This document shows, one piece after another, positions 811 through 27,373 of a stretch of 64,000 nt of DNA. Source of the DNA: Minisyncoccota bacterium (GTDB taxonomy: Bacteria > Patescibacteriota > Minisyncoccia > Phycocordibacterales > UBA6065); the NCBI GenBank assembly GCA_036400935.1, contig DASWWW010000001.1, forward strand, positions 46,096 through 110,095. The letters run 5' to 3'. Under the pieces are notes generated by a model, which saw only the letters and a program-made list of their open reading frames with translations, did not search any database and was not told the DNA's origin. Each line of letters begins with the position of its first letter. The first letter of the stretch is position 1. The translations under genes and the position numbers were made by a program.

Positions 811-933
811 GGTGTGATACATCTTAGCACATATCGTCTAAAATTGCAAGCCCCTGGCCGTATCTCGGGGAATGGGGCCGCGATTGGTCAAATTTGCTAT
901 AATATTGTGCGACACAGGGCTTCAAAATACATC

Positions 934-1863: not shown

Positions 1864-1971
1864 TCTTTCGAGTGCACGCATATCCGCCTGCTGGCGGATT
1901 GCTCCGCTCGCGCCGTCGCGCTGCGCGAGGCATCTCAAGACTATTTCTTGCCCCTTTGTTATGATTGCGAC

Positions 1972-3261: not shown

Positions 3262-3290
3262 TTCAACAAAAACGGCTCAATAAGGCCGTT
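3262..3290 (-). terminator. rho-independent terminator downstream of cca (minus sense acggccttattgagccgttttt)
   Basis: GC stem plus T-run immediately 3' of the cca stop, read on the minus strand. Confidence 0.4.
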
Positions 3291-3299
3291 TTATCTTGC

Positions 3300-4796
3300 C
3301 TACTTTACGCCGTGCTTTCCGCGTATCTTTGCTATCTCGTCCTCCTCCGCCTTCATTTTCTTGTCCTTCCCTACTGCCGCGCGCTTTTTGAGGTCCTCGT
3401 CTGGCAGTTTCATAAGCTCCAAAGTCTGTCCTTCTAGATATTCGGCCGTGTTGAGTTTTGGATTTTCCAATACTTCTTCAAGAAGAGCATTCAGAATAAG
3501 ACCGATCTTTGGATTTGGAGGCATTTTGCTCACTTCCATGATTTTCTTGCCGTCTATTTTGAGCATTCCTACGGAGATCGGGTCGCGGAGGGCTTCTTCA
3601 ATCATGGCTTTGTATTTGCGTAGTCGATATGGATTCTCCTTTGGTCGGCCGGTGCCGATACGATCGCAGATGCGGACGTTCATAAGATTCCAGATGTGCT
3701 CCTTCCCTACGTTGGCGACCATACGACGTACGGCCGAGAGCGTTATTTGTTCCGTGTCCGAGAAAAACATGTGCCAACGAACGAGTTTCACGACGTTTTC
3801 GACAGTTTTTGTTGGGAAATTGAGGTTTCTTAGGATCTTTTCGGTCATTCGGGCGCCAACCACCTCGTGTCCGTAGAACGTGAACTGATTGGTTTCACGT
3901 GAAAAGCGTCGTGTCGCGGGCTTGCCGATGTCATGAAACAGCGCAGCGAGACGGATTTCGAGGGGATATTTCTTGTCTGCCGAATGCTGAAGCGTTCGCA
4001 GCAAATGCTCCCAAACATCGTATGAATGGGCCTGGTTCTGCTCTACGCCGTAGCTTTCCTCCAATTCCCTTGCAATGAACGGGACAATTCCCAATTCACG
4101 GCACATCATAAGGGCATTCATGGGCGTATCGGACATGAGAATGCGTACAAATTCGTCTCGGACACGCTCCTTGGCTATATGGGCCAAAAGCGGCGCATGG
4201 GTTTTGAGGGCCTCCAGAGTACCCTTTTCTATCGCAAAGCCCAGTTCGGCCGCAATACGGATGGCACGCATAATGCGCAAGGCGTCCTCGGAGAGGCGCT
4301 CGTGAGCGTCTCCAACCGTTCGTATAAGGCCGTCTTTGATGTCTGTTTGCCCGTTAAACAGGTCGATCATGTTTCCTGTGAAACTTCCCTCTCGTTCATC
4401 CTCAAGCTTCAATGCCAGGGCGTTTATCGTGAAATCGCGCCGCTTGAGATCGTCCTCAATGTTCTTGCTAAAGGACACAGCATCTGGACGTCGCTTGTCT
4501 GTATATGCTGATTCGAGTCGGAATGGGGTTACTTCGACCGTCTTGAGCCTTTCATCAGTAGCGAGATCGTTTACCACGCCGACCGTGCCGTATGAGTTTT
4601 CGTAGAACGTGTGCGGAAACACGGCAATGATCTGTTCGGGAGTCGCATCGGTCGTAACATCCCAGTCCTTTGGCTCCCTGCCGATTATGAGATCTCGGAC
4701 GCAGCCGCCTACCAGATATGCTTTAAAACCCTTATTTTCGAGGGTTTTCGTTACTTGTGAAACTTCAACGGGAACGATAAATGAAGCTTTTGCCAT
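3300..4796 (-). CDS. cca: CCA-adding tRNA nucleotidyltransferase / poly(A) polymerase family with HD domain and C-terminal extension
   Basis: GGCVRDLIIGREPKDWDVTT (PolyA_pol head), HD motif AALFHDIGKP, long Lys/Glu-rich C-terminal tail. Confidence 0.8.
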   Translation of the reverse strand: MAKASFIVPVEVSQVTKTLENKGFKAYLVGGCVRDLIIGREPKDWDVTTDATPEQIIAVFPHTFYENSYGTVGVVNDLATDERLKTVEVTPFRLESAYTDKRRPDAVSFSKNIEDDLKRRDFTINALALKLEDEREGSFTGNMIDLFNGQTDIKDGLIRTVGDAHERLSEDALRIMRAIRIAAELGFAIEKGTLEALKTHAPLLAHIAKERVRDEFVRILMSDTPMNALMMCRELGIVPFIARELEESYGVEQNQAHSYDVWEHLLRTLQHSADKKYPLEIRLAALFHDIGKPATRRFSRETNQFTFYGHEVVGARMTEKILRNLNFPTKTVENVVKLVRWHMFFSDTEQITLSAVRRMVANVGKEHIWNLMNVRICDRIGTGRPKENPYRLRKYKAMIEEALRDPISVGMLKIDGKKIMEVSKMPPNPKIGLILNALLEEVLENPKLNTAEYLEGQTLELMKLPDEDLKKRAAVGKDKKMKAEEDEIAKIRGKHGVK

Positions 4797-5880: not shown

Positions 5881-5953
5881 CGGGGCGTGGTGTAACGGCT
5901 AACATGCTTCACTTGGGATGAAGTGACTCCGGGTTCGAATCCCGGCGCCCCGA
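5881..5953 (+). tRNA. tRNA-Pro (anticodon TGG)
   Basis: C1:G72 acceptor (CGGGGCG/CGCCCCG), anticodon loop CTTGGGA, T loop TTCGAAT. Confidence 0.8.
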
Positions 5954-5956
5954 CAA

Positions 5957-5990
5957 AATGAAAAACCGCACATGTGCGGTTTTTCATTTT
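5957..5990 (+). terminator. rho-independent terminator after tRNA-Pro
   Basis: aaaaaccgcacatgtgcggttttt perfect hairpin. Confidence 0.5.
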
Positions 5991-6148
5991 GTCGGGGCGA
6001 GCGCGTCCAGAGGACGTGCGACCGGGATTCGAAAAGGTTTTCCCATATTTTCGAGCTTTCCAAGCGAGAAAATGGGAAACCTGTACTGGTCCTGTAAGGA
6101 CCGAATCCCGGCCCTGTCTTTTTTCTTTGTTTTGCATAGACTGTATCT

Positions 6149-6472
6149 ATGGACTCCAAAAAATTCACCCGCACTATAGAGGATTTCACGTGCGGCAACT
6201 GCGGCCTTGAGGTGAAGGGCAACGGCTATACCAATCATTGTCCTAAATGCCTCTGGTCAAAGCATGTCGACAAGAATCCCGGGGACAGACTCGAGGAATG
6301 CGGCGGATTGATGAAGCCGATCGCGATCGCCAAGGAGGGAAAAGATTTCGTGATCACTCACAGGTGCCTTCGGTGTGGTTTCGAGCGCCGCAAGAAGGTG
6401 GAGGAGGGCGATGACTTTGATGCGGTTATCAAAATATCGTCAAGCGCGGACGACAGCGCAACAAAAAAGTAG
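6149..6472 (+). CDS. RNHCP domain-containing protein (Cys-cluster zinc-ribbon)
   Basis: FTCGNCG...GYTNHCPKCLWSKHVD...HRCLRCG: the RNHCP motif with paired CxxC ligands. Confidence 0.7.
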   Translation: MDSKKFTRTIEDFTCGNCGLEVKGNGYTNHCPKCLWSKHVDKNPGDRLEECGGLMKPIAIAKEGKDFVITHRCLRCGFERRKKVEEGDDFDAVIKISSSADDSATKK

Positions 6473-6852
6473 AATTGACGGGATTTGCTACTGTGTCGAA
6501 ATTTGTTGGGGGTCTGAAAGAAAATTACCTGCCAATACGCTCCAATAGCCAATATTTCGATCGAGAAAAGTAAACGCGTCGAAAGTCGATTTGTGTCAAA
6601 TTTCTGAGAGTATTTTGACAGTACAAAACGGCTGTATCGCTTCGGTGGCGCGCTGGTGTTCGGGTGTATGCTAAATATACGAAAGAGGGCGAAAGCTTTC
6701 TTTCGGAAAAGATCTTTTACCAAAGATAATAAAAATACACCTATGAAATTCTCAGATCAGCCAAAGCCAGACCAGAAGCCTCGACCAGACCAGAAGCCGC
6801 CACAGCAGTAAACTAATTTATGAAAAACGGCGTCGCGATTGCTCGCGACGCC

Positions 6853-6972
6853 GTTTTTTGCTACTATCGCTTAGCACTAGTAGGGAACAGGCGGCACATA
6901 TGCGGGCGTGGTTTAATGGTAGAACGATTGCCTTCCAAGCAGTACGTCCGGGTTCGATTCCCGGCGCCCGCA
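6853..6972 (+). repeat. copy 1 of a ~120 bp direct repeat (promoter-region sequence plus tRNA-Gly TCC)
   Basis: gttttttgctactatcgcttagcactagtagggaacaggcggcacatatgcgggcg...cccgcac is identical to 11064-11183. Confidence 0.9.
6902..6972 (+). tRNA. tRNA-Gly (anticodon TCC), copy 1, no CCA encoded
   Basis: Acceptor GCGGGCG/CGCCCGC, anticodon arm ATTGC-CTTCCAA-GCAGT, T loop TTCGATT. Confidence 0.8.
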
Positions 6973-7081
6973 CAAACTCAAAAACTCCTATTTTATATGG
7001 CTTTCCAGAGCCGAGGAATTTTTGGTTAGAACCTCATAATAAAAAGAAGTTCCTTGTGAGAAACTTCTTATTGAATGGAGT

Positions 7082-7297
7082 CTAGTCATCCATAAACGGC
7101 CAAATATAATTATTGTTTCCTGCTGCGCCGCCAACCGCCCTTTCCGAGCGTCTGTGGGCTTCAGCACACGGCAGACCGGTTTCATCCATGATTCGTGCCG
7201 TTTCTTCTTGTCTTCTGGTTTCATAAGCCGACATCTGATGTTTGATTAGTTCATCATGACGATCAGCTAAACTTTTTAGTTTTTTCTTTTTTGACAT
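7082..7297 (-). CDS. hypothetical small basic protein (71 aa)
   Basis: ORF only; lies in a locally AT-rich segment immediately 3' of tRNA-Gly copy 1. Confidence 0.3.
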   Translation of the reverse strand: MSKKKKLKSLADRHDELIKHQMSAYETRRQEETARIMDETGLPCAEAHRRSERAVGGAAGNNNYIWPFMDD

Positions 7298-7436
7298 TGT
7301 TAACCTTTCCTAAAGTAATCTACAAAACCTTTTCTTGAACTTTAAGTAAAAAAAGTGAAATTCAAAATAGTGGCTAATACAATAGTTATTTTGTAAAAAA
7401 GTTGACAAAAATATTGTCATAAACAATATTGATAGT

Positions 7437-8225
7437 ATGAAATTACAAAAAGCAGAATTATCTTTTTTAAATCTTTCGAGCTTAGAGGCAAAAATACTGC
7501 AGACTATGTCTCCTGATGTTTCATTTACCGTAAGTGAGCTGTCGAGAGAAATTAAATTTCCAAGGACTTCCGTAGGTTTCACTTTAAATAGGTTAAAGTA
7601 TCGTGGCTTTGTAAAAAAAATTGGGGTTAAGAAACATACGGAATGGCGAGTCATTGCGATTGATTCCTTAGCCTCGAGGCTCCAATCTATTTCTCACCGG
7701 TTAAGTATCGATGAAGATAACAATAGAAGAAACAATTTATTTGTAAAAATCGGCTACGGTCAAGAGGGTTTCAAGAGGGCATATGAAAAGATGCTTCAAA
7801 TCCAATGTGACCGAGTTTACTTTATACAAGGCAATAAAGCGGCAGAAGCTGGTCTAAAAAAGATCAATTTTAGCTACTATGCTGATTTTCATAAAAAATT
7901 ACGGAAAAAAGACATCGTAATGGAGGCAATAGCAGGAGAAAGTATCTTGAAACGTCTAGAAAATCTGAGTAAAGAAGAGATAAGGGCACACAAAGATCGC
8001 CTAATCATTACTTACTTAATACCCGATCAATATATAGATTTCGATGTAGATATAATCATGTTAAATAAGCATCTGATTATTGTAGATCCCGTGAATGAAA
8101 TCTCACTTACAATAAATGAAGCTTCCATTTCGAAAGCTTTCCAGATAATATTTATTGGCCTTGCATCATTGGGAAGAAAATTCGATTTAAATGCTTTTAT
8201 AAGAGGTTCCAATTTCATTCACTAA
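7437..8225 (+). CDS. TrmB-like winged-helix transcriptional regulator (AT-rich, atypical codon usage)
   Basis: N-terminal HTH (LSSLEAKILQTMSPDVSFTVSELSREIKFPRTSVGFTLNRLKYRGFV); the C-terminal domain resembles that of the 18975..19736 protein (AISKAFQIIF vs IADSMRTWFQIIW). Confidence 0.5.
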   Translation: MKLQKAELSFLNLSSLEAKILQTMSPDVSFTVSELSREIKFPRTSVGFTLNRLKYRGFVKKIGVKKHTEWRVIAIDSLASRLQSISHRLSIDEDNNRRNNLFVKIGYGQEGFKRAYEKMLQIQCDRVYFIQGNKAAEAGLKKINFSYYADFHKKLRKKDIVMEAIAGESILKRLENLSKEEIRAHKDRLIITYLIPDQYIDFDVDIIMLNKHLIIVDPVNEISLTINEASISKAFQIIFIGLASLGRKFDLNAFIRGSNFIH

Positions 8226-8242
8226 TCTGCACCAACAAATGA

Positions 8243-8266
8243 AAAATCCCCGGAAGGGGATTTTTC
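8243..8266. terminator. hairpin aaaaatccccggaaggggattttt (also present at 11193-11218)
   Basis: Perfect GC-rich stem flanked by A/T runs; bidirectional terminator shape. Confidence 0.5.
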
Positions 8267-8275
8267 GTTGCGATC

Positions 8276-9058
8276 TTATTTTTTATTGCCACCAATCGTG
8301 CCCCATAGATTCTTGAAAAGCTCGCGCATGTTCTCGGCATAGACAGCGTCATGTATCTCAACCAAATAGTAGGGGTGCTGCTTTGTCATCATGAATACAA
8401 CGTATTCTCCTAGGGCCCATGTTGTTGCGGTGAATTTAAAATCCTCCTTCCAGAATTTGATTTGGCGGCGTTCCAGGTTTCTCGCTTGCATGTTTCGTTC
8501 GACGCTCGAATCATTTGAGATTATCTTTACGTCGAACTGCTGAGGGGCTCTTTTCCAATACCACTCGATCCACTCGAGATGCTCCTTCTTTTCAACCATC
8601 GTATGGTCTTGGAATCCCCACCACGTGAGATCTTTTGTTGCAGCCATGCTCGATTCCCAGATCGGCGTCTGGCTATAAAGAAAATCAGTCATGTTGTGCT
8701 CCTCGATGAATCGCATCTTGGGTACCGAATAGGATTTCGATTTAGGCACGCTCTCAAGCTTCGTCACGAGCTCTTGGGCTATTTTCCTTTTTTCCGAAAG
8801 CGCTCTTTCCTCGACTTGGAGCGCTTTCTCAAGATGCTCGAGGGGTAGGGCGACAAAATAGCCGTTTGGGCCATGTATGTCTTCAGCCATAACGCCCCTT
8901 TTGATGAGCTCTTTGCCGACGGAATACACGGTAGGTCTCTTGATATTGGTCAGGGAGGCGATTGCGGCGGGCGCTATTTTGCCATTTTCTAGTACGGTCA
9001 GATATACCTGAATCTCCTTATCGGTAAAGCCAAGTTTTTTGAGTAATTCATCGATCAT
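8276..9058 (-). CDS. TrmB family transcriptional regulator
   Basis: N-terminal TrmB HTH (FTDKEIQVYLTVLENGKIAPAAIASLTNIKRPTVYSVGKELIKRGV); C-terminal domain paralogous to the 13961..14758 protein (WWGFQDH conserved). Confidence 0.65.
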   Translation of the reverse strand: MIDELLKKLGFTDKEIQVYLTVLENGKIAPAAIASLTNIKRPTVYSVGKELIKRGVMAEDIHGPNGYFVALPLEHLEKALQVEERALSEKRKIAQELVTKLESVPKSKSYSVPKMRFIEEHNMTDFLYSQTPIWESSMAATKDLTWWGFQDHTMVEKKEHLEWIEWYWKRAPQQFDVKIISNDSSVERNMQARNLERRQIKFWKEDFKFTATTWALGEYVVFMMTKQHPYYLVEIHDAVYAENMRELFKNLWGTIGGNKK

Positions 9059-9337
9059 GGCTCTAGTATAACCAATCTCTAATTGTTGTCAATGTTAAAT
9101 CAACAGATAAATACCTTTATCTTATATAGATTATATCGATTTATCTAAATAAATCGTTGATTTTAAATTGACAATTAATAAAAACTGTGCAATACTTATA
9201 TAAGAAAGTAAAGTTCATTACATTGCGTTGGTTATGGAAACGGGCCCTATCTAGATATCGGCCCGACTCCGTAACCAATGCGACTGATAAGCTCCCTTCT
9301 TGGGATGACACGGTTGCTGAGGTGAGGAACATACGCC

Positions 9338-10090
9338 ATGAGTACCACTGATACAAGTGCTGGTGCGAAAAACGACGGACGGTTCGCTCACACGCTCGGG
9401 GAGGAGTACGAGTTGCTACTGAAATCGATGCCTCATTATAGCGAGGTTCAGTGGAGGATCGGCCAGATCATTGGGAAAAGGTTTGAGGGCAAACCCGTTT
9501 CTAAGGTCAAGGTCCTTGAAATCGGCTGCGGTACCGGTATCACTACGCGGGCGATTCTCGGGTGCGATGTGAGGACGGAGATCTGGGCTGTCGACAACGA
9601 GAAGGTGATGCTCGAGCAGGCAAGGGCCATGGTAAAGGGTCTGCGCGCCCAAAGCCGTGTTCATTTCGAGCAGCACGACATCTTGGTCTTCCTCGGGACG
9701 GTTCCGGATAGCTACTTCGATGTCGTCGCTTCTGCCTGGGTGCTCCATAACTTCGAGAATGGTTTACGTGAGGAAATCATGAAAGAAATCTATCGGGTGC
9801 TCAAGCCGGGAGGGCTTTTCGTGAACGGCGACAAGTATGCCCACGACGATCTCGCCGAGCGGGCATCGAGGCTCGCTGAGCAGATCCGACGCTTTGACGT
9901 CTACGATGGCATGGGCCGCTCGGACTACAAGGCGGAGTGGATCGCTCACTACGTGCAGGACGAGCGTCCGGAAGTGATCTGGATCGAAGGTGAGGCGAAG
10001 AAGCAGATGCACCGGCTCGGCTTCGAGATGGTTGGTCCGATTTATCGCTGCCTCATGGAGGCCGTGATGGTCGGGACCAAGCCGGTCTGA
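9338..10090 (+). CDS. class I SAM-dependent methyltransferase
   Basis: Motif I VLEIGCGTGITT; post-I acidic residue; VLKPGGLFVNGD motif. Confidence 0.7.
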   Translation: MSTTDTSAGAKNDGRFAHTLGEEYELLLKSMPHYSEVQWRIGQIIGKRFEGKPVSKVKVLEIGCGTGITTRAILGCDVRTEIWAVDNEKVMLEQARAMVKGLRAQSRVHFEQHDILVFLGTVPDSYFDVVASAWVLHNFENGLREEIMKEIYRVLKPGGLFVNGDKYAHDDLAERASRLAEQIRRFDVYDGMGRSDYKAEWIAHYVQDERPEVIWIEGEAKKQMHRLGFEMVGPIYRCLMEAVMVGTKPV

Positions 10091-10225
10091 GCTTATCAGG
10101 AGAGTTGGAAGACTCATTAAAACTTTCAGCCTGCATCTCGATCGATGCAGGTTCCTACGAGGCTTACGACGCAAGTGCGTCGCGGGTCTCCAGGAATAGG
10201 ACATTGAAATATTTCAGCTTTCTCT

Positions 10226-10975
10226 ATGAAAACGACACTGCTGCTAGTTGCTATCGCATCAGTCGCGCTCCTTTCGAGCGGGACTTCCGCTTCGGAGTCA
10301 AAAGGACCGAGCGTTACCGTAGGGACTTTGATTACTAACAAGTATCTGGCCTCGGGGACAGGCTCGACGCTGAGTCGGGATCCAGCGCTCCAGTCGGATC
10401 TATTCGTTATGTTTCCAAATGGCTTCTACGTAGATCTCTGGAATTCCAGAAGCCTTCGCGGCTCATGGGATGACGGAAGCCTTGGCAACGAGGTGGACTA
10501 CAGCGTTGGCTGGAAGGGCGCGGTTGCTGAGGGCGCAAGTCTGAACGTTGCCACGTCCTACTTCGACGAGCCGAGGGCTTTCGATCTTGGTAAAGGCGAC
10601 ATTCTCTATACACGCGCGTTTCTGACCAAGGGCTTCAAGCTCTTGCCTGTCACGATCGGGTATGAGAACTATGTCGCTATGCCTAGCTCGGGTTTCCGCG
10701 GCGGGAGCCTGGTTAGCCTGGGCTCGGGCAAGTCTTGGTCTGGGATCGAGAGCAAGATCTCGGCGCGCGTCTCGGCTGCTGCGGTGTATGACTTCGGCAC
10801 GCTAGGCACTTCGAGCGGAGTGATATTTCGAGGCGGCGCAGGCATTGACTGGAAAGCCTCGAAGCGTCTGACCGTCAATCTGATTGGAGCGAATTGGTTT
10901 GTTCCGGTAACTCCTCGGGATAAGCGATCATCAGACGTCGCTTTCTCTACTGGCGTTACGTGGAGTGTGAAATAG
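10226..10975 (+). CDS. secreted beta-rich protein of unknown function (signal peptide), paralog of 14891..15628
   Basis: MKTTLLLVAIASVALLSSGTSASE signal peptide; Gly/Ser/Tyr/Trp-rich alternating pattern; same length class and position in module as the 14891 gene. Confidence 0.5.
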   Translation: MKTTLLLVAIASVALLSSGTSASESKGPSVTVGTLITNKYLASGTGSTLSRDPALQSDLFVMFPNGFYVDLWNSRSLRGSWDDGSLGNEVDYSVGWKGAVAEGASLNVATSYFDEPRAFDLGKGDILYTRAFLTKGFKLLPVTIGYENYVAMPSSGFRGGSLVSLGSGKSWSGIESKISARVSAAAVYDFGTLGTSSGVIFRGGAGIDWKASKRLTVNLIGANWFVPVTPRDKRSSDVAFSTGVTWSVK

Positions 10976-11042
10976 TCGCTTTGTCAGATTCAAGCCCGCA
11001 TCATGAAAATGATGTGGGTTTTTATTTTGCTATGTGACAAAT

Positions 11043-11070
11043 AAAAAACCGCCCAGTGAGCGGTTTTTTT
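11043..11070. terminator. hairpin aaaaaaccgcccagtgagcggttttttt (near-identical copy at 11721-11751)
   Basis: Perfect stem with symmetric A/T runs; bidirectional. Confidence 0.5.
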
Positions 11071-11183
11071 GCTACTATCGCTTAGCACTAGTAGGGAACA
11101 GGCGGCACATATGCGGGCGTGGTTTAATGGTAGAACGATTGCCTTCCAAGCAGTACGTCCGGGTTCGATTCCCGGCGCCCGCA
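11064..11183 (+). repeat. copy 2 of the ~120 bp tRNA-Gly-containing direct repeat
   Basis: Identical to 6853-6972. Confidence 0.9.
11113..11183 (+). tRNA. tRNA-Gly (anticodon TCC), copy 2, followed by encoded CCA (11184-11186)
   Basis: Sequence identical to copy 1; 3' context gcaCCAacaa differs from copy 1 (gcacaaactc). Confidence 0.8.
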
Positions 11184-11192
11184 CCAACAAAT

Positions 11193-11218
11193 GGAAAATC
11201 CCCGGAAGGGGATTTTTC
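11193..11218. terminator. hairpin ggaaaatccccggaaggggatttttc (second copy)
   Basis: Identical stem-loop to 8243-8266. Confidence 0.5.
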
Positions 11219-11231
11219 ATTGCCAGCATTG

Positions 11232-11693
11232 CTAGACTTCCTCGTATTCAAACCCGATCATTTTCGTATCTTCCTCATTATAGAAAGCCTTTGCCTTGAT
11301 TCTCTTTCCCTTAAGCACAAGCTCGAGCCAGGCCCTATCTGAGTCCCACATCTTGTCGAAAGGAACCGCATCGAACGCGAACCAACGGGGAAGCGCCATC
11401 TCTTCTGTCTCGATAAAATCGCCTCGCCACGCGCGGACAAAGAATACGTGGCATTCGAATGTCGCTACGCCGCCTTTGGAAAAGCTAATAGTCGCCACCT
11501 TTTCTAGATCCTGCTCGTTCGCGGATATACCGCTTTCCTCATTGAGCTCGCGCATCGCAGCCGCCTCGACCCTTTCGCCCGTCTGGACCTTGCCTCCATA
11601 TCCGTTTAGACGCCCTGCGCCATGCCCGCGCCGCTTCTCGGAAAGCAGTATTTGACCGTCTTTGACAGGGAATACGATGGTGGCGACTTTCAT
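11232..11693 (-). CDS. NUDIX hydrolase (MutT-like)
   Basis: Nudix box GYGGKVQTGERVEAAAMRELNEESGI. Confidence 0.75.
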   Translation of the reverse strand: MKVATIVFPVKDGQILLSEKRRGHGAGRLNGYGGKVQTGERVEAAAMRELNEESGISANEQDLEKVATISFSKGGVATFECHVFFVRAWRGDFIETEEMALPRWFAFDAVPFDKMWDSDRAWLELVLKGKRIKAKAFYNEEDTKMIGFEYEEV

Positions 11694-11720
11694 GAGCTAA
11701 GTATAGCCCAGGTACCTGCA

Positions 11721-11751
11721 GCAAAAAACCGCCCAGTGGGCGGTTTTTTGC
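11721..11751. terminator. hairpin gcaaaaaaccgcccagtgggcggttttttgc
   Basis: Near-identical to 11043-11070 (tgag vs tggg loop); sits between the convergent NUDIX and HU genes. Confidence 0.5.
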
Positions 11752-11765
11752 AATTCTGATCAGAA

Positions 11766-12038
11766 TTATTTGACTGAGTCCTTGAGAGCCTTAGCTGCTC
11801 GGAACTTAGGAACCTTCATAGCTGGGACCGAGATGGTCTCGCCGGTTCGAGGATTTCGTGCCTGTCGAGCCTTTCGCATCTTCACTGAGAAGATACCGAG
11901 GCCTGCGATAGAAACTTCATCGCCCTTCTTGAGGCCTGCGACGATAGAGTCGAAAACCTTGTCGACTACCTGCTCTGCCTGTACCTTCGTTGTATTAAGA
12001 ACTCCGTGTACTGCTTCTACGATTGCTGCTTTGTTCAT
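11766..12038 (-). CDS. hup: DNA-binding protein HU
   Basis: MNKAAIVEAV...GDEVSIAGLGIFSVKMRKARQARNPRTGETISVPAMKVPKFRAAKALKD; full HU/IHF fold signature. Confidence 0.85.
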   Translation of the reverse strand: MNKAAIVEAVHGVLNTTKVQAEQVVDKVFDSIVAGLKKGDEVSIAGLGIFSVKMRKARQARNPRTGETISVPAMKVPKFRAAKALKDSVK

Positions 12039-12247
12039 GATATGGAAATTACCTTTAATAATACGAACTTACTTGCGCTGGATTTTCATCGAGCGCTTTC
12101 CACTCGGTAGTCGAGGGGTTGGTCTATATAGATTATATAAGAAGCCATTTTTTAGGCAAATAGCGAAAATATGGCTCTGTTGACAACTGTGGATAAGAAA
12201 AAAGTAGAAATAATAAAACGGCTCTGTTGAGCCGTTTTATTAGGTAT

Positions 12248-13777
12248 CTATCGGGCGAATTCCGTAATCCTATTTTCCCGAATTAGCGTGACTTTAATTT
12301 CTCCTGGGTACTTTAGATCCTGCTCTATCTTTTCAGCTACGGCGCGCGCCATGTTCTTTGCTTCGATATCCGAAACCTGATCTGGCTTCACAAAAATGCG
12401 GATTTCGCGACCGGCCTGGAGGGCGTACGCCTTCTCGACGCCGCTCATTCCCGTGGCGATTGCCTCCAAATCCTGCAATCGCTTGATGTAGTTCTCGACG
12501 CTGTCGTGTCGGGCTCCTGGTCGGGCTCCAGATATGGCGTCCGCCACCTGAACGATGATGGATTCGACGGTTTCGTACGGATATTCGTCGTGATGGGCCT
12601 GCATGGCCTTGATTATGGCCTCATCCGCGCCGAATTTCTGCAAAATACGGCGTCCGATCTCGACATGGGAGCCCTGAACCTCGTGGTCGAGGGCCTTTCC
12701 GATGTCGTGAACGAGGGCTCCGGCCTTTGCTACGGCCACATTTGCGCCCAATTCCTCGGCAATCATGCCTGCGACGTGCGCCATCTCAACGGAATGCTGC
12801 AAAACGTTCTGTCCATACGATGTTCGGAAGTAGAGGCGGCCTAAAATGGCTATGATTCGTGGATCGAGATTCATAACGCCCACTTCGTAGGCTGCCTGCT
12901 CGCCCTTTTCCTTGATTACTCTATTTATGTCCTCGCGAGCCTTCTCTACGAGCTTTTCGATCTTTGCTGGCTGTATGCGGCCATCTTTTATGAGCTCCTC
13001 GAGGGCCATTCGGGCGATCTGGCGGCGGATAGGGTCGAATGACGACAATATAATGGTGCCCGGGGTGTCGTCGACGATGACTTCTACGCCGGTAACTCGC
13101 TCAAAGCTCTTGATATTTCGGCCTTCCTTGCCGATGATCTTGCCCTTGATCTCGTCAGAGGCGATCGTGATAGAGGTGGAAAAAATATCAGAACCTACGG
13201 CGTTTCCGAGGCGGTGTATAGCGGTCGCGAGGATATCCTTGGCGCGGGCCTCGATCTTGTCCTGGTTGGCGCGCTCCAATTTCTGCATGCGCACGAGCAA
13301 ATCGTCGCTATACTTGTTCTCGGTTGTCTTTATGATCTCTTCTTTGGCCTGCTCCTGAGTGAGGCGGGCTGTTGTTTCGAGGGCATTCTGCCTGTCGGCA
13401 AGGAGCTTGTCGGCGCGCTCCTTGATAGAGCGGATTTCAGCGGCCTTGGCCTTGATGGATTCGACTTCGGAATCGAGGTCTGCCTGGCGTTTTTCGAGGG
13501 AATCCTCCTTCTTTATGAGGCGATCCTCGATTGCCTTTGCCTTTTCCTCCTTTTCTTTGACCTCCTGGCGCAATTCCTTCATCGTATCGGCGGCTTTCTG
13601 TTCCGCGTCGAGGACGATTTTCTTGGCCTGCTCTTCGGCGGTCAGAAGGGCGTGCTTGAGGTCTGTTTCGATAGATCGCTTCTTTGCGAGCGCGATCAAA
13701 AGACGCGCCCAATATCCAAGGGCCGCGCCTCCGATCATGGTCGCCGTAGCGAGCAAGAGGGCGTATATAAGTGACAT
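12248..13777 (-). CDS. rny: ribonuclease Y
   Basis: N-terminal TM, coiled coil, KH domain (IIGKEGRNIKSFERVTGVEVIVDD), HD domain (HSVEMAHVAGMIAEELG...VHDIGKA). Confidence 0.9.
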   Translation of the reverse strand: MSLIYALLLATATMIGGAALGYWARLLIALAKKRSIETDLKHALLTAEEQAKKIVLDAEQKAADTMKELRQEVKEKEEKAKAIEDRLIKKEDSLEKRQADLDSEVESIKAKAAEIRSIKERADKLLADRQNALETTARLTQEQAKEEIIKTTENKYSDDLLVRMQKLERANQDKIEARAKDILATAIHRLGNAVGSDIFSTSITIASDEIKGKIIGKEGRNIKSFERVTGVEVIVDDTPGTIILSSFDPIRRQIARMALEELIKDGRIQPAKIEKLVEKAREDINRVIKEKGEQAAYEVGVMNLDPRIIAILGRLYFRTSYGQNVLQHSVEMAHVAGMIAEELGANVAVAKAGALVHDIGKALDHEVQGSHVEIGRRILQKFGADEAIIKAMQAHHDEYPYETVESIIVQVADAISGARPGARHDSVENYIKRLQDLEAIATGMSGVEKAYALQAGREIRIFVKPDQVSDIEAKNMARAVAEKIEQDLKYPGEIKVTLIRENRITEFAR

Positions 13778-13960
13778 ATTTTTATAAAGCCGTCAGCTTT
13801 TAGGGTCTGTGTTGGGCGAAAGAGATTGAGAGATTTCTGAGTCGAAGGGAGGAGGAAAGGGGCGTCCAAGAGATCGTTGATGCGTCCGGCCGGAAATTAA
13901 AGGGGTAACGATTTCATACTACATACAAAGCGGGGGAGTGGCAAGGGTAAGCTGTCGGGC

Positions 13961-14758
13961 CTATGCGATTTTGCTCCCGGCCGAGGATTCGGTGAGCGAC
14001 CACAGCTTCTTGAAGACCTCACGCATGTTGTGGGCGAGCGTCACGTCGTGAATCTCTACCAGGTAGAAAGGGTGCTGCCTGGTTACTGCCATGACAAGAT
14101 AGTCGCCCGCGACCCACACGCTCGATGTGAAATTCATGCCGGGGAGGAAGCGTATGTCGCGCTTTTCTCGCGAAAGCGTGCGCTTCATCTTGTTCTCGAT
14201 GGGCGATATGTTGCTCAGCAGGTGGGCCTTTACTCGGGGGTCCTGATACTGCTTCTGATTCCATACCCACCTGATCCATTCCTCGTAATTCTCGACGAGG
14301 CTGTGATCCTGAAAGCCCCACCAGGTGAAGTCGATTGAGGATATGGCGTCTTGCCACTTGTGAAAATTTTCATAGAGGAAATTCTTGAGGCCGCTTTCCT
14401 CCACGAATCTGATTTTCGGCACGGGATACTCCTTTTCTGCCGTGACGACGCTGAGCTCGTCTATGAGCTTCTTTATAAGCGACTCCTTTTCCTCGAGCTC
14501 GCGGCGCGGCTTCTCGATTATCTGCTTGAGGCTTTCGAGGGGCAGGGGGCTTAGGTACAAGGTCTTTCCGCCCAAGTCTTCGGCAATGATCCCTTTGGTA
14601 AGCAGGCTGCGCGCGATATTGTAGACGGTTGGCCTGCTGATGCCGCAGATTTTGGATAGGGAGGTGGGGGTCATGCGCCCCTTCTTTATAAGGGCGAGAT
14701 AGACTTTTATTTCTTTAGCGTTGAGGCCGATATCGGCGAGTTTCTCATTTAGTGACAT
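13961..14758 (-). CDS. TrmB family transcriptional regulator, paralog of 8276..9058
   Basis: Start moved to MSLNEKLADIGL (14758) by analogy with the paralog; HTH LSKICGISRPTVYNIARSLLTKGI; shared C-terminal motif FTWWGFQDHSLVENYEEWIRWVW. Confidence 0.6.
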   Translation of the reverse strand: MSLNEKLADIGLNAKEIKVYLALIKKGRMTPTSLSKICGISRPTVYNIARSLLTKGIIAEDLGGKTLYLSPLPLESLKQIIEKPRRELEEKESLIKKLIDELSVVTAEKEYPVPKIRFVEESGLKNFLYENFHKWQDAISSIDFTWWGFQDHSLVENYEEWIRWVWNQKQYQDPRVKAHLLSNISPIENKMKRTLSREKRDIRFLPGMNFTSSVWVAGDYLVMAVTRQHPFYLVEIHDVTLAHNMREVFKKLWSLTESSAGSKIA

Positions 14759-14890
14759 AAATGCAGGATATTCTGTTGTCAGAGTTTTGTCAACAAAAGT
14801 CATACAAAAATTGACAATAATGGGGATATCGCTAGGGTTAATAGTTGAAACGTTCGTTCGGCAACCTTGAAAATTCAATATGGGCTTACT

Positions 14891-15628
14891 ATGAAATACC
14901 TGGTGCTTATCCTTAGTCTCACGCTCTGCGTATCCCGGCTGCAGGCCGCAGATTCCAAAATGTCCTGGTCGCTTACGACCAGCGTACTGTCTCAATATAT
15001 CGGGGAGGGCGGTAGCGTCTTTTCCGAAGATCCCGAGCTCATCACGGATCTAATCGCCTTTAAGGGCGACTGGTATGCGGGCTTGTGGGTAGCCACGGGC
15101 CTTAAGGGCGGTTCATATACCAAATCCTACGCCAATGATTACGATCCGTATGTCGGCTGGGCGCGCGCTTTCGGCCCGGTTAAGTACGAAATTACGGCGA
15201 TTTATTTCGCAATCAGCGATCTGCGGCTTATCCGCGACGATATCTGGGTCTTGGATCAGAAAGTCAGCTTTTCGAAATGTCCTGTCGTCCAGCCGTATAT
15301 AAAGGTGCGTTCCGCCTTTGAGATAGGCTCGAAAAGTTTCGAACGCGGGATGTTCGTCTGGGCGGGAATCGGCAAGTCCATCGCCTTGGGCGAATCAAAG
15401 CTGAGTCTCGACCTATCAACCGCGTATTCGGATGGGGCCTACGGAAAAGACTCGGGATGGATATTCGGCCGGGCATATGCCGGTCTGACTATGCCGCTGT
15501 CCAAGAATCTCTCCGTCATGCCCTCGTTCATGTATCAGGTCCCGGCTTCGGGCCAAAAGGGAAACCCTCGCGGGTTTACGAATGGCAATGAAGTCGTCGC
15601 CGGCATATCGATCACTCGCAAGTTCTGA
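14891..15628 (+). CDS. secreted beta-rich protein of unknown function, paralog of 10226..10975
   Basis: Signal peptide MKYLVLILSLTLCVSRLQAADS; similar Gly/Tyr/Trp-rich composition and length. Confidence 0.5.
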   Translation: MKYLVLILSLTLCVSRLQAADSKMSWSLTTSVLSQYIGEGGSVFSEDPELITDLIAFKGDWYAGLWVATGLKGGSYTKSYANDYDPYVGWARAFGPVKYEITAIYFAISDLRLIRDDIWVLDQKVSFSKCPVVQPYIKVRSAFEIGSKSFERGMFVWAGIGKSIALGESKLSLDLSTAYSDGAYGKDSGWIFGRAYAGLTMPLSKNLSVMPSFMYQVPASGQKGNPRGFTNGNEVVAGISITRKF

Positions 15629-15632
15629 CGCC

Positions 15633-16334
15633 ATGCATAACTTACCTCCAGCAGAAATCTATGAGCAGGAGTTCCGTTACATGTCGTGGGGAAAGCTCGT
15701 CGCACAGGTGGCAAAGCGCATCGTCAAAGATGTTCCGCGCGGAGGCAGCGTTCTCGACCTGTGCTGCGGTCCCGGCTACCTCCTCGGGCAGATAAAAAAT
15801 GATCGCCCGGACATTCGTTGCGTCGGCGTCGATCTCGATTCTGAGTTCATCGCTCATGCCCGAAAGCGTTACCCGTCGATAGACTTCGAGATAGGGGACG
15901 TGCTCGCTTGGGATGCAACAGAAAAGTTTGACGCGATCGCTTGCACCGCGGGAGTGCATCATATCCCTCTCGAGAGTCAGGAGAAATTCATCGCGCGCAT
16001 GTCGACCTTTTTTAAGGAAGGCGGCGACATGAAAAGCTTCGCAATTGTCGGCGACCCGTATATCGGCGATTACGAGACCGAGTCGGAGAGGCAGCTCGCG
16101 TCCCTGGAACTCGGTTGCGAGTATCTCGCGGAAGCGATCCGCAACAGCGCGCCGCCGGACGTGGTGAAAGCGGGAATCGGCATCCTGGAGAACGACCTGC
16201 TTCTCGTCGAATGGAAGACGTCGGTCAGAAAGCAGATCGCATGCTTCAGGAGGCACTTCGCCGTCGTCGAAGAGAATCACGTGTGGCCGATAGGGAAGAA
16301 TTTAGGCGACTACTATTTCGTCCTCGGTCGCTGA
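15633..16334 (+). CDS. class I SAM-dependent methyltransferase, second copy in the duplicated module
   Basis: VLDLCCGPGYLLG (motif I), VGVDLDSEF (post-I), FDAIACTAGVHHI; start set at MHNLPP just after the upstream stop. Confidence 0.6.
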   Translation: MHNLPPAEIYEQEFRYMSWGKLVAQVAKRIVKDVPRGGSVLDLCCGPGYLLGQIKNDRPDIRCVGVDLDSEFIAHARKRYPSIDFEIGDVLAWDATEKFDAIACTAGVHHIPLESQEKFIARMSTFFKEGGDMKSFAIVGDPYIGDYETESERQLASLELGCEYLAEAIRNSAPPDVVKAGIGILENDLLLVEWKTSVRKQIACFRRHFAVVEENHVWPIGKNLGDYYFVLGR

Positions 16335-16345
16335 AGCTCCAAAGC

Positions 16346-16379
16346 AAAACCGATCACTCGCAAGAGGATCGGTTTTTTT
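16346..16379. terminator. bidirectional rho-independent terminator between MTase and clpP
   Basis: aaaaccgatcactcgcaagaggatcggttttttt. Confidence 0.5.
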
Positions 16380-16398
16380 CTTTTCTATTTTTTCGAGA

Positions 16399-16977
16399 CT
16401 AGCTGAGTACCTTGTCGACGATGCCGTACTTCTTTGCCTCCTCCGCATCGAGGAAGAAGTCTCGGTCGACATCCTTCTCGATCTGGGCAAGCGGCTTGCC
16501 GGTGTTGTCCGAGAGAATCTTGTTCAGTCGCTCGCGCGTCTTCAGGATGTGCTTCGCGGTGATCGCGATATCGGCCGCCTGGCCCTCGACTCCTCCGAGC
16601 GGCTGATGGATCATGACCTCGGCGTTCGGGAGGACGTATCGCTTTCCTTTTTCTCCCGCAGAGAGAATAACCGCACCCATCGACGCCGCCATTCCAACGC
16701 AGACGGTCGACACGTCGTTCTTCACGTGATTCATCGTATCGATGATCGCGAGTCCCGCGGTAACCGATCCGCCTGGTGAGTTCACGTAGAGCGAGATGTC
16801 TTTTTTAGAATCTTCCGACTGGAGGAAGAGGAGCTGCGCGATCACGGTGTTCGCAACCGCGTCGTCGATCGGGCCTGAGAGGAAGATGATGTTTTCCTTG
16901 AGGAGGCGCGAGTAGATATCATAAGCGCGCTCGCCCATGGTTGTTTTCTCGATGACGGTTGGGATGAGTATAGACAT
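16399..16977 (-). CDS. clpP: ATP-dependent Clp protease proteolytic subunit
   Basis: [10 protein letters not shown]...[17 protein letters not shown]...[14 protein letters not shown]...MIHQPLGG; catalytic Ser-His-Asp context. Confidence 0.9.
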
Positions 16978-17106
16978 ACGTGTTGTGATTAAGGTTTCGA
17001 TAATTGCCCGCGACTGAGGGATAGCGAAACAATATACAAAAAGGCAGGGAAGCGCAATACGGGCGGGCGTGTTTCTTTTTCTGAGAAACTGCCTATACTG
17101 TTACAC

Positions 17107-17802
17107 ATGAGGTTACACCGTTTTTTTCTCACATCAAATATTTCTAAAGGAAAGATAAATTCTTTCTCAAGCCCCTCTCTCACGCACCAGTTGAGCCACG
17201 TTTTTAGGTTGCACGCCGGGGATACCGTCGTATTCTTCGATGGTACGGGCACGGATTACACCTGCGAGATTGTTTCACTCGAGAAGGCCGATGTGATGTT
17301 CCGCGTCGTTGAAACGTCGACCGTGAAACCGCTCTCTGAAACGAAATTGGCCTTGGCGGTCTCCCTTATCAAGAAGGACAACTTCGAATGGATCATTCAG
17401 AAGGGGACCGAGCTCGGCGTATCTGAGTTCATCCCCCTCATCTCTGAGCGCAGCGAGAAGAAGGGTTTCAACATGGAGCGAGCGAACAAGATTATGACCG
17501 AGGCGCTCGAGCAGTCCGGCCGAAGCGACATGGCGGTCGTGCGCGAGCCGATCGCCCTTGCCGATTTTCTCGAGAGTGAAAAGCGTCCGATCACGACGCT
17601 TCATCTGAGCGGCGAGTCTTTCAAGAATGAATTAGCGATCGCGGGAGAGATCGTCCTCTGTATCGGACCTGAGGGCGGATGGTCGGATAAGGAGATCGGC
17701 ATGTTCAAGGAAAAAGGAGCGTCCGTTATCAAACTCAATTCGCCCGTGTTGCGAGCCGAGACTGCGGCAGTCGCAGCGGCAACTTTGTTTCTTGTCCGTT
17801 AA
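17107..17802 (+). CDS. rsmE: 16S rRNA (uracil1498-N3)-methyltransferase
   Basis: C-terminal SPOUT motifs CIGPEGGWSDKEI and LNSPVLRAETAAVAAATL. Confidence 0.8.
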   Translation: MRLHRFFLTSNISKGKINSFSSPSLTHQLSHVFRLHAGDTVVFFDGTGTDYTCEIVSLEKADVMFRVVETSTVKPLSETKLALAVSLIKKDNFEWIIQKGTELGVSEFIPLISERSEKKGFNMERANKIMTEALEQSGRSDMAVVREPIALADFLESEKRPITTLHLSGESFKNELAIAGEIVLCIGPEGGWSDKEIGMFKEKGASVIKLNSPVLRAETAAVAAATLFLVR

Positions 17803-18974: not shown

Positions 18975-19736
18975 CTATTGTTTTGGGCCGGACTTGTTTT
19001 CTTCCGGAGTTGCTTTCCAAATTATCTGGAACCAGGTACGCATGCTGTCGGCTATTGCCTTGTTGGCAATGACTGTATAGGTTGCCTTCTCGTCTATCTC
19101 GCCTGGCCGAATACTCGAGAATATGATGATGCGATCCTCTAGTATCTCGATGGCGGAATTCGTTGAAAGGTCGGGGCCAAAGAACTTGTTTGACGACATG
19201 CTCAGAACTGACGGTATGGCATGCCGTGCTTCGTGGTCAAAAATGGCGAAAAAGCGGATTTTCTTTCGTTTGGCCTCGCGCTCGAACTGCTCATAAAAGG
19301 ATGAGATGCGCTTGTCTCCCCAGGCGCCCTTCGCGCCCAGCGTATATATGTCGCCGCCGACGCGCAGAAGCTCTCTCATGTAGTTTTTCCAGCCTTCTAT
19401 GCCGCGATAGACATATATTGAGTCGTCACGTCGGGCTCCCTGGTAAAGGGATTCCAAGGAAGGAATTATCTTTTCGAGCTTAGACTCTTTTTCTTTTACT
19501 ATCTCCATGAGCTTTCGGGGATCAACGGCTTGGTAGCGATTTTCGGCGCCTTGAAGTATTTCAAATGCCACGCCCTTCTCTACGAGGCGATTTACTGAAT
19601 CGTACACATTGCGTCGGTTGATTCCGGCACGCACTGCAATTTTGCTTACCGGAAGCTCCCCATCAATAAGAAGAGTTTCATATATTTTAGCCTCGTTTTT
19701 CGAAAAATTAAGCTCTGTAAGGGTTTCTACAATCAT
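18975..19736 (-). CDS. TrmB-like winged-helix transcriptional regulator
   Basis: HTH FSKNEAKIYETLLIDGELPVSKIAVRAGINRRNVYDSVNRLVEKGV. Confidence 0.55.
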   Translation of the reverse strand: MIVETLTELNFSKNEAKIYETLLIDGELPVSKIAVRAGINRRNVYDSVNRLVEKGVAFEILQGAENRYQAVDPRKLMEIVKEKESKLEKIIPSLESLYQGARRDDSIYVYRGIEGWKNYMRELLRVGGDIYTLGAKGAWGDKRISSFYEQFEREAKRKKIRFFAIFDHEARHAIPSVLSMSSNKFFGPDLSTNSAIEILEDRIIIFSSIRPGEIDEKATYTVIANKAIADSMRTWFQIIWKATPEENKSGPKQ

Positions 19737-19829
19737 ATATTTATGTGGTACATATTACCACCATATGGCCATATATGCCACTCAAACAGTAATATATAGC
19801 TTGAGTTGGTCGGGATAATCTTTTAATCC

Positions 19830-27319: not shown

Positions 27320-27373
27320 GCTTGTTCGGGCAAGTGTTGGTATACTAAAGGCAACATTATTCATCGAAACCAA

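Follow-up and report, generated by a model that had tools for sequence, protein, structure and literature searches.

How would a bacterium of the Candidate Phyla Radiation (CPR) use a TrmB-type regulator placed back to back with a methyltransferase and a secreted protein, and why should one genome carry such a trio twice? The question is raised by a 64,000-nucleotide stretch of a Minisyncoccota genome (GenBank assembly GCA_036400935.1, contig DASWWW010000001.1, positions 46,096 to 110,095; here the window, whose own numbering is used throughout). It holds two three-gene modules, A and B, in each of which a TrmB gene diverges from a methyltransferase gene and a gene for a secreted protein. CPR bacteria make up a large part of bacterial diversity and live off other cells, and their metabolite uptake is barely understood. 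An earlier interpretation made from the letters of the DNA (the sequence-only reading) described the trio as a module duplicated in all its parts, with permuted gene order. All six open reading frames (ORFs) are present where it placed them:

8276–9058, minus strand: TrmB_A, regulator of the 'TWWGFQDH' subfamily with winged helix-turn-helix (wHTH), coiled coil and C-terminal domain (PF01978, 47.5 bits)
9338–10090, plus strand: MT_A, class I S-adenosylmethionine (SAM) methyltransferase whose large, uncharacterised family resembles CmoA, MM_2633 and CysG
10226–10975, plus strand: POR_A, signal peptide and predicted 12-stranded outer-membrane-type β-barrel (TIGR02001/PF09694, AlphaFold2 model and Foldseek)
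13961–14758, minus strand: TrmB_B, paralog of TrmB_A in a distinct orthogroup (PF01978, 53.6 bits)
14891–15628, plus strand: POR_B, divergent paralog of POR_A with a signal peptide
15633–16334, plus strand: MT_B, also a class I SAM methyltransferase but from another subfamily, weakly similar to Tam, CalS10, ToxA and TylM1

The cassette is a divergent regulator–uptake operon, placed in a flexible region of the CPR genome, with a recurrent methyltransferase that is non-orthologous between the two copies. What it does is a more delicate matter. We favour, at about even chances, the reading that both modules are autoregulated uptake cassettes, in which TrmB controls a channel and a small-molecule methyltransferase, and that they are built on a paralogous TrmB–porin pair, as two copies of a cassette characteristic of Paceibacteria. 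Relatives came from two scans. A genome scan with an alignment of the secreted protein (the porin alignment) yielded 13 loci, all from the Paceibacteria/Parcubacteria part of the CPR, and a metagenome scan with an alignment of TWWGFQDH TrmBs yielded 152 relatives, of which 80 loci were retained for comparison (loci are given as L numbers).

The regulators and their candidate operator

What kind of TrmB are these proteins? Both exceed the Pfam gathering score for PF01978 (25.6 bits), and they are 40% identical to each other over 257 aa (E 3e-73), with the TWWGFQDH motif common to both. Orthologs of TrmB_A (61–68% identical) are found in L003, L004, L015–L019 and L032, and those of TrmB_B (66–76% identical) in L049, L089, L082, L094, L060 and L093. 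Positions 6–106 of an 81-member subfamily profile align with residues 10–110 of TrmBL2 (E 5e-7) and with the TrmB structure 3QPH (E 1e-4), which places a coiled-coil dimerisation arm after the wHTH, as in TrmB/TrmBL2. The likeness to the archaeal proteins (Thermococcales; 3QPH, 5BOX) consists of this N-terminal wHTH and arm, and the total length of about 260 aa is comparable to that of TrmBL2. The C-terminal domain, however, has a sequence unlike the TrmB sugar-binding domain or any solved structure: in the PDB profile search the solved TrmBL2/TrmB structures cover the N-terminal 106 positions only and leave this domain unmatched, no Pfam match to a sugar-binding effector domain of the TrmB/TrmBL1 type appears past the N-terminus of TrmB_A or TrmB_B, and the window TrmBs reach only 19–29 bits against NCBIfam TrmB-type equivalogs with cut-offs of 500–650. 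The window proteins also differ from archaeal TrmB in forming a bacterial CPR subfamily with another dyad (TGTTG-N12-CAACA), in their probably leaderless mRNA and in being seemingly autoregulated. Literature searches on TrmB in Patescibacteria returned no description of such a regulator or cassette.

TrmB regulates solute-uptake genes through a palindromic operator in the promoter, and the same arrangement would seem to apply to the modules. But which element would be the operator? The sequence-only reading proposed TTGTCAA/TTGACAA inverted repeats, and these do lie where it put them in both divergent regions, with TTGACAA at 9086–9092 (minus), 9168–9174 (plus), 14787–14793 (minus) and 14811–14817 (plus). 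The window has 11 copies of TTGACAA against 5.7 expected, and three of these four are the first hexamers (−35) of top-scoring σ70-like sites. A stand-alone operator of this kind is ruled out, since those copies are −35 hexamers and a larger dyad is conserved; what holds of the proposal is that this 22-bp dyad contains the TrmB-side TTGACAA. The promoters and dyads are as follows:

9065–9092, minus strand: TrmB_A promoter, TTGACA-16-TATACT, the best promoter-like site in 6000–17200 (11 of 12 positions)
14765–14793, minus strand: TrmB_B promoter, TTGACA-17-TATCCT, from promoter scan and sequence
9168–9196, plus strand: promoter of the MT_A–POR_A operon, TTGACA-17-AATACT with upstream TG, from promoter scan
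14811–14838, plus strand: probable POR_B–MT_B promoter, TTGACA-16-TAGGGT, inferred, with a weak −10 and below the scan threshold
9084–9105, minus strand: dyad O_A1, TGTTGATTTAACATTGACAACA, candidate TrmB operator, an exact TGTTGA-N8-TGACAACA overlapping the TrmB_A −35
9155–9176, plus strand: dyad O_A2, CGTTGATTTTAAATTGACAATT, weaker (3 mismatches), its right half being the −35 of the MT_A/porin promoter
14774–14795, minus strand: dyad O_B, TGTTGACAAAACTCTGACAACA, candidate operator extending across −35 and spacer of the TrmB_B promoter

The −10 of each of the two TrmB genes stops 6 nt short of its ATG, a spacing shared by 45 of 77 related upstream regions, and for this reason the TrmB mRNAs are probably leaderless. 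The exact 22-bp dyad TGTTGA-N8-TGACAACA occurs at two sites in the window, one per module, where 0.2 sites would be expected even with two mismatches permitted; its exact core, TGTTG-N12-CAACA, occurs at three (0.00 expected). Beyond the window, the 77 aligned distinct upstream regions of the subfamily give the consensus TGTTGA(C)-N-(T)CAACAAC or TGACAACA around the same core, and a relaxed dyad precedes 66 of the 77 TrmB genes. The exact core is present in 42 of the 102 loci that served for this count (single in 41, double in L025), nearly always at the TrmB promoter. A relaxed scan for the two half-sites returned 160 matches in 545 kb against 8–21 in shuffles; 70 lie directly upstream of subfamily genes, and the others are mostly the same palindrome on the opposite strand or a second site by the divergent gene. 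Second sites laid out like O_A2, adjoining the divergent gene, are found in L029, L033, L036, L069, L087, L089, L093 and L094. O_B lies 16 bp away from the POR_B −35, and TrmB_B orthologs are arranged alike. Across orthogroups the half-sites are invariant while their position relative to −35 and −10 varies, which favours a site bound by the regulator over an element of the promoter. The 22-bp dyad is, from its conservation, likely to be the operator of TWWGFQDH TrmBs. The target promoter is conserved too: TTGACA...TGCAATACTTA...AGAAAGTAAAG is kept in six A-type modules, irrespective of which gene, methyltransferase or porin, comes first.

The third exact core dyad of the window, TGTTGGTATACTAAAGGCAACA (27335–27356), lies away from the modules, 18 nt upstream of a gene (27374–27937, plus strand) whose product has a signal peptide and a Peptidase_S74 (endosialidase chaperone) domain. 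This gene may be a further member of the regulon.

The secreted protein

What would the regulator switch? The secreted protein had been described as a β-rich product of unknown fold, possibly a barrel or lipocalin-like. POR_A matches TIGR02001 with E 1.5e-9 and 37.8 bits (cut-off 47.15) and PF09694 (Gcw_chp) with 22.7 bits (cut-off 24); POR_B matches neither. PF09694 is present in 12 of 25 close homologs of POR_A, one of which NCBI names a TorF family putative porin. As POR_A and POR_B lie below the cut-offs though close homologs carry PF09694, they are best placed as peripheral members of TorF/Gcw_chp. We know of no demonstrated function for TorF family putative porins. They resemble the window proteins in size (about 245 aa with signal peptide), the TorF model covering the N-terminal half of POR_A, and differ in that the window barrels come from a CPR lineage regarded as outer-membrane-free.

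The AlphaFold2 model of POR_A, made from a 26-sequence alignment, has a mean predicted local distance difference test (pLDDT) score of 86.8 and shows an N-terminal signal helix followed by 12 long β-strands. With this model Foldseek retrieved from the PDB outer-membrane barrels only (FapF, OmpG, PcoB, KdgM, NanC and Tsx), with E 1e-7 to 1e-5 and TM-scores up to 0.56; these proteins share the 12-long-strand barrel with the predicted fold, but just 8–14% identity with POR_A. The strands are amphipathic (family-averaged Kyte–Doolittle +1.51 on one face and −0.55 on the other, 12 strands), and the barrel protein lacks cysteine. POR_B ends in ...TRKF and POR_A in ...TWSVK, and 13 of 26 family members end in Phe. 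By its modelled structure the secreted protein belongs to a membrane-barrel family and is neither a new fold nor lipocalin-like.

POR_B can be tied to POR_A by 33% identity over 219 aa (E 3e-15), so that the secreted proteins are paralogs, as had been claimed. It scores 222 bits against the porin-family hidden Markov model (HMM), POR_B itself being among the 26 training sequences, and is 37% identical to the porins beside TrmB_B orthologs in L049 and L089; a word-indexed search for its relatives returned POR_B itself only. The family as a whole is large. Its profile found 1044 relatives at E ≤ 1e-3 and 85 at E ≤ 1e-30 among 1.84 billion representatives, and 22 of 52 sampled relatives match TIGR02001. 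Literature searches on porins and β-barrels in Patescibacteria/Parcubacteria returned no description of porin-like barrels. One further element belongs to this gene:

10992–11021, plus strand: terminator-like hairpin 3' of POR_A, a 13-pair stem followed by a T-run

In which membrane would such a barrel sit? Groundwater CPR cells imaged by cryogenic transmission electron microscopy have an S-layer, no outer membrane, and are attached to two-membrane hosts (bioRxiv 10.1101/2020.05.14.094862), and the CPR has been classed among the monoderm lineages that lost their porins (bioRxiv 10.1101/2021.05.31.446380). Might the barrel then be a secreted effector, inserted into the outer membrane of a Gram-negative host as a channel for drawing metabolites? 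Such a role would suit cells without an outer membrane that attach to two-membrane hosts, a barrel with all the sequence hallmarks of a membrane-embedded outer-membrane protein, a window in which no BamA-like gene was seen, and a regulator that exchanges the barrel gene for nutrient-binding proteins (see below). However, it would presumably call for a delivery route or self-insertion, the BamA scan covered 64 kb of the genome, and some Paceibacteria may possess an unrecognised outer layer. We regard host insertion as unlikely, if worth keeping in mind.

Partners of the regulator subfamily

Is the regulator dedicated to this module? It is not: members of the subfamily also stand opposite ATP-binding cassette (ABC) solute-binding-protein operons and other genes. 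For 62 assessable subfamily genes, with up to three divergent genes counted for each, the partners are:

SBP_bac_3 ABC operon: 11 loci
TorF-like porin: 9 loci
c3 family with signal peptide: 6 loci
MT_A-like methyltransferase: 5 loci, to which the six-frame HMM scan adds L018 and L056
Peripla_BP_6 binding protein: 3 loci

An N-terminal hydrophobic stretch is found in 30 of the 62 first divergent neighbours. TrmB_A orthologs face POR_A-like porins or, in L016, an SBP_bac_3 ABC operon, and TrmB_B orthologs face POR_B-like porins (L049, L089) or Peripla_BP_6 binding proteins (L060, L093); porin and binding protein alternate as partners for orthologs of both regulators. The partners of the TWWGFQDH subfamily tend to have exported uptake hardware as their common theme.

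At the c3 loci (L028, L031, L035, L055, L075) and in L024 and L036, subfamily TrmBs stand opposite signal-peptide proteins of 190–240 aa that are β-rich by sequence, end in an aromatic residue or Leu and have no Pfam match. Remote homology between the signal-peptide proteins of clusters c3, c17 and c29 and the porin family was considered and excluded, hhalign giving probabilities below 4% and no detectable homology. The c3-type proteins may, from these sequence features, be further CPR barrel families.

The window has a comparable pair in another TrmB subfamily. A fourth TrmB-family gene, TrmB_D (18975–19736, minus strand), lies opposite a Peripla_BP_6 binding protein (19830–20894, plus strand), and between them, at 19745–19761, is a perfect palindrome, GTGGTA-N5-TACCAC, which may be a candidate operator of TrmB_D.

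The methyltransferases

Was every component of the module duplicated? For TrmB and the secreted protein this holds, as the alignments above show, but the methyltransferases, also taken for clear paralogs, depart from it. MT_A and MT_B align only across the SAM-binding core (24% identity over 127 aa, E 1e-4), and the MT_A-family HMM gives MT_A 335 bits and MT_B 18. Their best matches differ as well (CmoA, MM_2633, CysG and CpaM-like for MT_A; Tam, CalS10, ToxA and TylM1-like for MT_B). Paralogy too weak to speak of duplication, the weakness that the sequence-only reading itself had foreseen, is thus found for the methyltransferases, whose likeness is one of class, and not for the TrmB and secreted-protein pairs. 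By sequence, the two enzymes are different subfamilies filling one slot of two paralogous cassettes.

What do they methylate? Standard quinone methyltransferases of the UbiE/MenG kind were another suspicion, and one that the scores contradict: MT_A reaches 46.9 bits and MT_B 26.4 against a TIGR01934 cut-off of 158.35, and the linkage of MT_A to its neighbours recurs across many genomes. MT_A misses all curated Pfam/NCBIfam equivalog cut-offs. As a CmoA carboxy-SAM synthase it scores 49.4 bits against 193.3 (TIGR00740), though the fold aligns full-length, and members of its family are often auto-annotated as CmoA. MT_B falls short of trans-aconitate methyltransferase Tam (41.8 bits against 320 for NF010703, 37.9 against 297 for NF002463). 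Members of the MT_A family, at least 445 of them at E ≤ 1e-10, come from CPR, DPANN archaea, methanotrophs and Nitrosococcus.

MT_A has no signal peptide, and the nearest folds to its model (pLDDT 92), with TM-scores of 0.70–0.76, are CysG/BelI (Ca-dependent 3-alkylmalate carboxyl O-methyltransferases), MM_2633 and CmoA/YecO, all at about 20% identity. The comparison points to small-molecule enzymes. CysG/BelI-type enzymes have a His-His-Asp metal site and an N-terminal basic residue touching the substrate carboxylate, and an H123N variant in that work was still active (PMC11408123). In the profile alignment the invariant H137-N138 of the MT_A family falls on the metal-binding His-His of CysG (PMC11408123), so that His-His-Asp in CysG is met by His-Asn in MT_A, the Asp position being outside the alignment; a Lys of the MT_A family aligns near Arg22 of CysG. 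It seems reasonable to suppose that the substrate of MT_A would be a small molecule tied to the transported solute, and carboxyl O-methylation would be our best guess for the reaction.

Gene neighbourhoods are consistent with such a link. Outside porin modules, MT_A-like genes of the CPR lie within Peripla_BP_6 arrays (L098), beside a Peripla_BP_6 gene at the slot that holds the porin in L100 (L099), or at the end of an amino-acid ABC operon (L056). In all, at least 12 distinct CPR loci combine an MT_A-like gene with uptake genes, far above expectation for a roughly single-copy gene. As for MT_B, its start is 4 nt past the POR_B stop codon, and this short distance suggests translational coupling of the two.

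Module conservation and RNA elements

How stable is the association of the three genes? The three-gene module is real: by a six-frame HMM scan together with gene calls, six of the eight orthologous A-type modules contain an MT_A-like gene. The permuted order claimed for modules A and B recurs among these relatives, and both gene orders occur even where the module proteins share 59–71% identity with those of the window (T, TrmB; M, MT_A-like gene; P, porin; HH, hammerhead):

window: T, M, P
L101: T, M, HH, P, HU
L002: T, HH, M, P
L102: T, P, HH, M
L018: T, P, HH, M
L032 (the same as L100): T, P, M
L003: T, P
L004: T, small ORF, P

Because TrmB_A and TrmB_B orthologs pair with POR_A-like and POR_B-like porins respectively, the TrmB–porin pair appears to have been duplicated before these genomes diverged. 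Four of the six A-type modules with an MT_A-like gene have a hammerhead adjoining it (L101, L002, L102 and L018), either before this gene or between it and the porin. Operons with type III hammerheads are thus found among the orthologous modules; the window modules, however, have none: on the module alone there is no covariance match to RF00008 at E ≤ 10, nor is there a CUGAUGAG...CGAAAC core. The RNA elements are listed below, L101 and L052 exceeding the RF00008 gathering score of 48.5:

9222–9284, plus strand: long hairpin in the MT_A 5' leader, no Rfam family match
10091–10225, plus strand: structured MT_A–POR_A junction element (z = −4.6), aligning with L101 and L018 on both sides of the hammerhead
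L101, 2284–2338: type III hammerhead, 48.6 bits
L052, 3981–4036, minus strand: type III hammerhead, 50.5 bits
L002, 4976–5031: type III hammerhead, 43.3 bits
L102, 2172–2226: type III hammerhead, 42.4 bits
L018, 3895–3918, minus strand: type III hammerhead, catalytic core

In the window junction a GC-rich hairpin (about 10158–10190) replaces the hammerhead core of the relatives, and the junction element stays between methyltransferase and porin in either order (also L101 2228–2370 and L018 about 3860–4016). The MT_A leader is about 135 nt long (9203–9337); 9203–9345 folds at −50.5 kcal/mol (z = −4.1), and its hairpin recurs in L101, where the base changes preserve pairing. The leader and the methyltransferase–porin junction were also searched for a riboswitch or another known RNA, an idea that was rejected, Rfam giving no match even at E ≤ 10. 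After the leader hairpin stands CUGAUAAG...GACAC, similar to a hammerhead core but altered at two catalytic positions.

Do the three genes form one integrated system, duplicated as a unit and shuffled in order, whose methyltransferase works on the exported barrel (methylating it ahead of export, say) or strictly together with it? A methyltransferase in six of eight A-type modules and in module B would fit, as would the recruitment of two unrelated methyltransferases beside paralogous porins and the placement of either gene order around one conserved junction element. MT_A-like genes, however, also occur in ABC and binding-protein clusters and beside unrelated small proteins, free of any porin, and L003 and L004 retain TrmB and porin without a methyltransferase. 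MT_A itself has no signal peptide and has small-molecule enzymes as its nearest structures, and its family is widespread in organisms without this linkage. We consider an enzyme devoted to the barrel improbable, and an uptake cassette with a small-molecule methyltransferase the better description.

Genomic setting

Where do the modules sit? Housekeeping genes for a NUDIX protein, HU and RNase Y do separate the two copies, as reported earlier, with ClpP, RsmE and trigger factor just past module B. The neighbouring genes have 66–81% identical orthologs in metagenome-assembled genomes of Taylorbacteria, Minisyncoccia and Paceibacterota, and the remaining scanned ORFs of the window are typical of the CPR (NusA, PilB-like ATPase, ComEC, RecJ, FolD, TIM, SOD). 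Since RNase Y and ClpP are adjacent in L005 and L007, module B appears to be an insertion between them. Module A, for its part, is bracketed by a direct repeat of about 160 nt that includes tRNA-Gly(TCC) and a terminator hairpin:

6854–6977, plus strand: direct repeat copy 1 with tRNA-Gly(TCC) at 6902–6973, 124 nt, 99% identical to 11065–11188
11065–11223, plus strand: direct repeat copy 2 with tRNA-Gly(TCC) at 11113–11186 and terminator hairpin, right flank of module A

The left flank consists of 6854–6977 together with a 43-nt stretch, 8229–8271, that is 95% identical to 11181–11223. Relative to L007, where the order is HU, TrmB, porin and tRNA-Gly, module A is inverted between the copies; this inversion and the near-identity of the flanks suggest recent rearrangement or gene conversion. 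The 3' end of the first tRNA-Gly copy is the exact site of a 1.25-kb low-GC insertion (6978–8228) with a TrmB-like gene (7437–8225, GC 0.34 against about 0.53 for the genome) and a 71-aa ORF (7082–7297, minus strand). No integrase was seen in it, and it looks like the remnant of a small mobile element carrying another TrmB-family gene.

A second site of exchange is visible on the backbone of XerC-like integrase, Exo_endo_phos, CCA-adding enzyme and tRNA array shared by the window (814–4796), L099 and L100. The slot between XerC and Exo_endo_phos holds a cassette of TrmB, porin and methyltransferase in L100 and one of Peripla_BP_6, MT_A and methyltransferase in L099; in the window it is empty (an 85-nt gap).

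Would the modules then be loose neighbourhoods at a recombination hot spot, with methyltransferases as passengers tied to the porin by a promoter alone? The cassette does occupy varied backbone sites (XerC/Exo_endo_phos in L100, HU/tRNA-Gly in the window, RNase Y/ClpP for module B), module A is flanked by tRNA-Gly direct repeats with a low-GC insertion adjoining, a binding protein takes the porin slot in L099, and MT_B occurs in this genome alone among the compared loci. Yet the recurrence of MT_A-like genes with uptake genes exceeds what a single-copy gene would give, the 4 nt between POR_B and MT_B suggest coupling in translation, and the conserved junction element and the hammerheads link both cistrons. 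Mere passengers are therefore a minority view for us, rather doubtful though not far-fetched, and the uptake cassette is kept as the working reading.

Some other elements of the window are recorded here for completeness. A secreted protein of 263 aa (27954–28745) has about 14 tandem 8-residue repeats, (Y/S)SEGYYPP(A/V/T/S), with Cys-rich ends and no Pfam match. A perfect 27+27-nt palindrome (5946–5999) directly follows tRNA-Pro, and a 27-nt hairpin, AAAAAACCGCCCAGTGAGCGGTTTTTT, stands on both sides of the NUDIX gene (11043–11069 and 11723–11749); the palindrome and the hairpins look like bidirectional terminator-like elements.

A working model and its meaning

How might the cassette operate? 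In the proposed mechanism a CPR-specific TrmB, with its wHTH, coiled coil and TWWGFQDH C-terminal domain, would be made from a leaderless mRNA, and its dimer would most likely bind the 22-bp dyad at its own promoter, where −35 and spacer are overlapped. The dyad also adjoins, or recurs at, the −35 of the divergent promoter. Given these two positions, binding would repress both transcripts, and repression would be relieved once a small-molecule ligand binds the C-terminal domain. The divergent operon would then supply a Sec-exported, 12-stranded channel of the TorF/Gcw_chp type and a cytoplasmic SAM methyltransferase; the channel would admit a solute, and the enzyme would probably modify that solute or a close metabolite. 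As to history, an old TrmB–porin duplication would have been followed by the recruitment of a different methyltransferase to each copy, module A keeping the ancestral place beside HU and tRNA-Gly and module B being inserted between RNase Y and ClpP.

Several observations weigh against this model. The first divergent neighbour is unclassified for 33 of the 62 subfamily genes, and for this reason 'uptake' names a tendency of the partners and not a rule. The conservation of the dyad is in part merely that of the −35 hexamer, and the second site at the target promoter is weak: in module A it departs from the dyad at 3 positions, and in module B its left half is poor. POR_A and POR_B both miss the curated TorF cut-offs. 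A barrel of this kind is surprising here, the CPR having been imaged without an outer membrane and being listed as having lost porins, and among the scanned ORFs of the window no genes for outer-membrane biogenesis were seen. Proteobacterial MT_A homologs (Methylomonas, Nitrosococcus) have no porin or TrmB nearby. Finally, no MT_B homologs are found in the compared loci, where contigs with relatives of module B end right after the porin.

A bolder picture can be drawn from the same parts, and we offer it as speculation that will more probably prove wrong than right. In it Paceibacteria would make true outer-membrane-type channels, either for an unrecognised outer lipid layer of their own or for the outer membrane of a host whose metabolites are tapped; a ligand-sensing TrmB would switch these through the 22-bp operator, the methyltransferase would trap or detoxify the incoming solute, and in relatives the hammerheads would tune the ratio of the products. 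In the literature searched, a CPR-specific TrmB subfamily with its operator, a coupling of uptake to methyltransferases and outer-membrane-type barrels of the CPR are not described.

What does the locus mean for these organisms? It is a regulatory unit whose candidate operator is sharply defined and turns up in dozens of metagenomic loci, and it links a regulator to uptake hardware, both ABC binding proteins and porin-like barrels. Should the barrels be merely porins of an overlooked outer layer, the cassette would be a plain regulator–transporter pair, and interest would narrow to the envelope. The barrel family, with about 1000 clusters at 50% identity, occurs in a lineage imaged without an outer membrane, and it bears on the debate about the CPR envelope and on how episymbionts breach or exploit their hosts.

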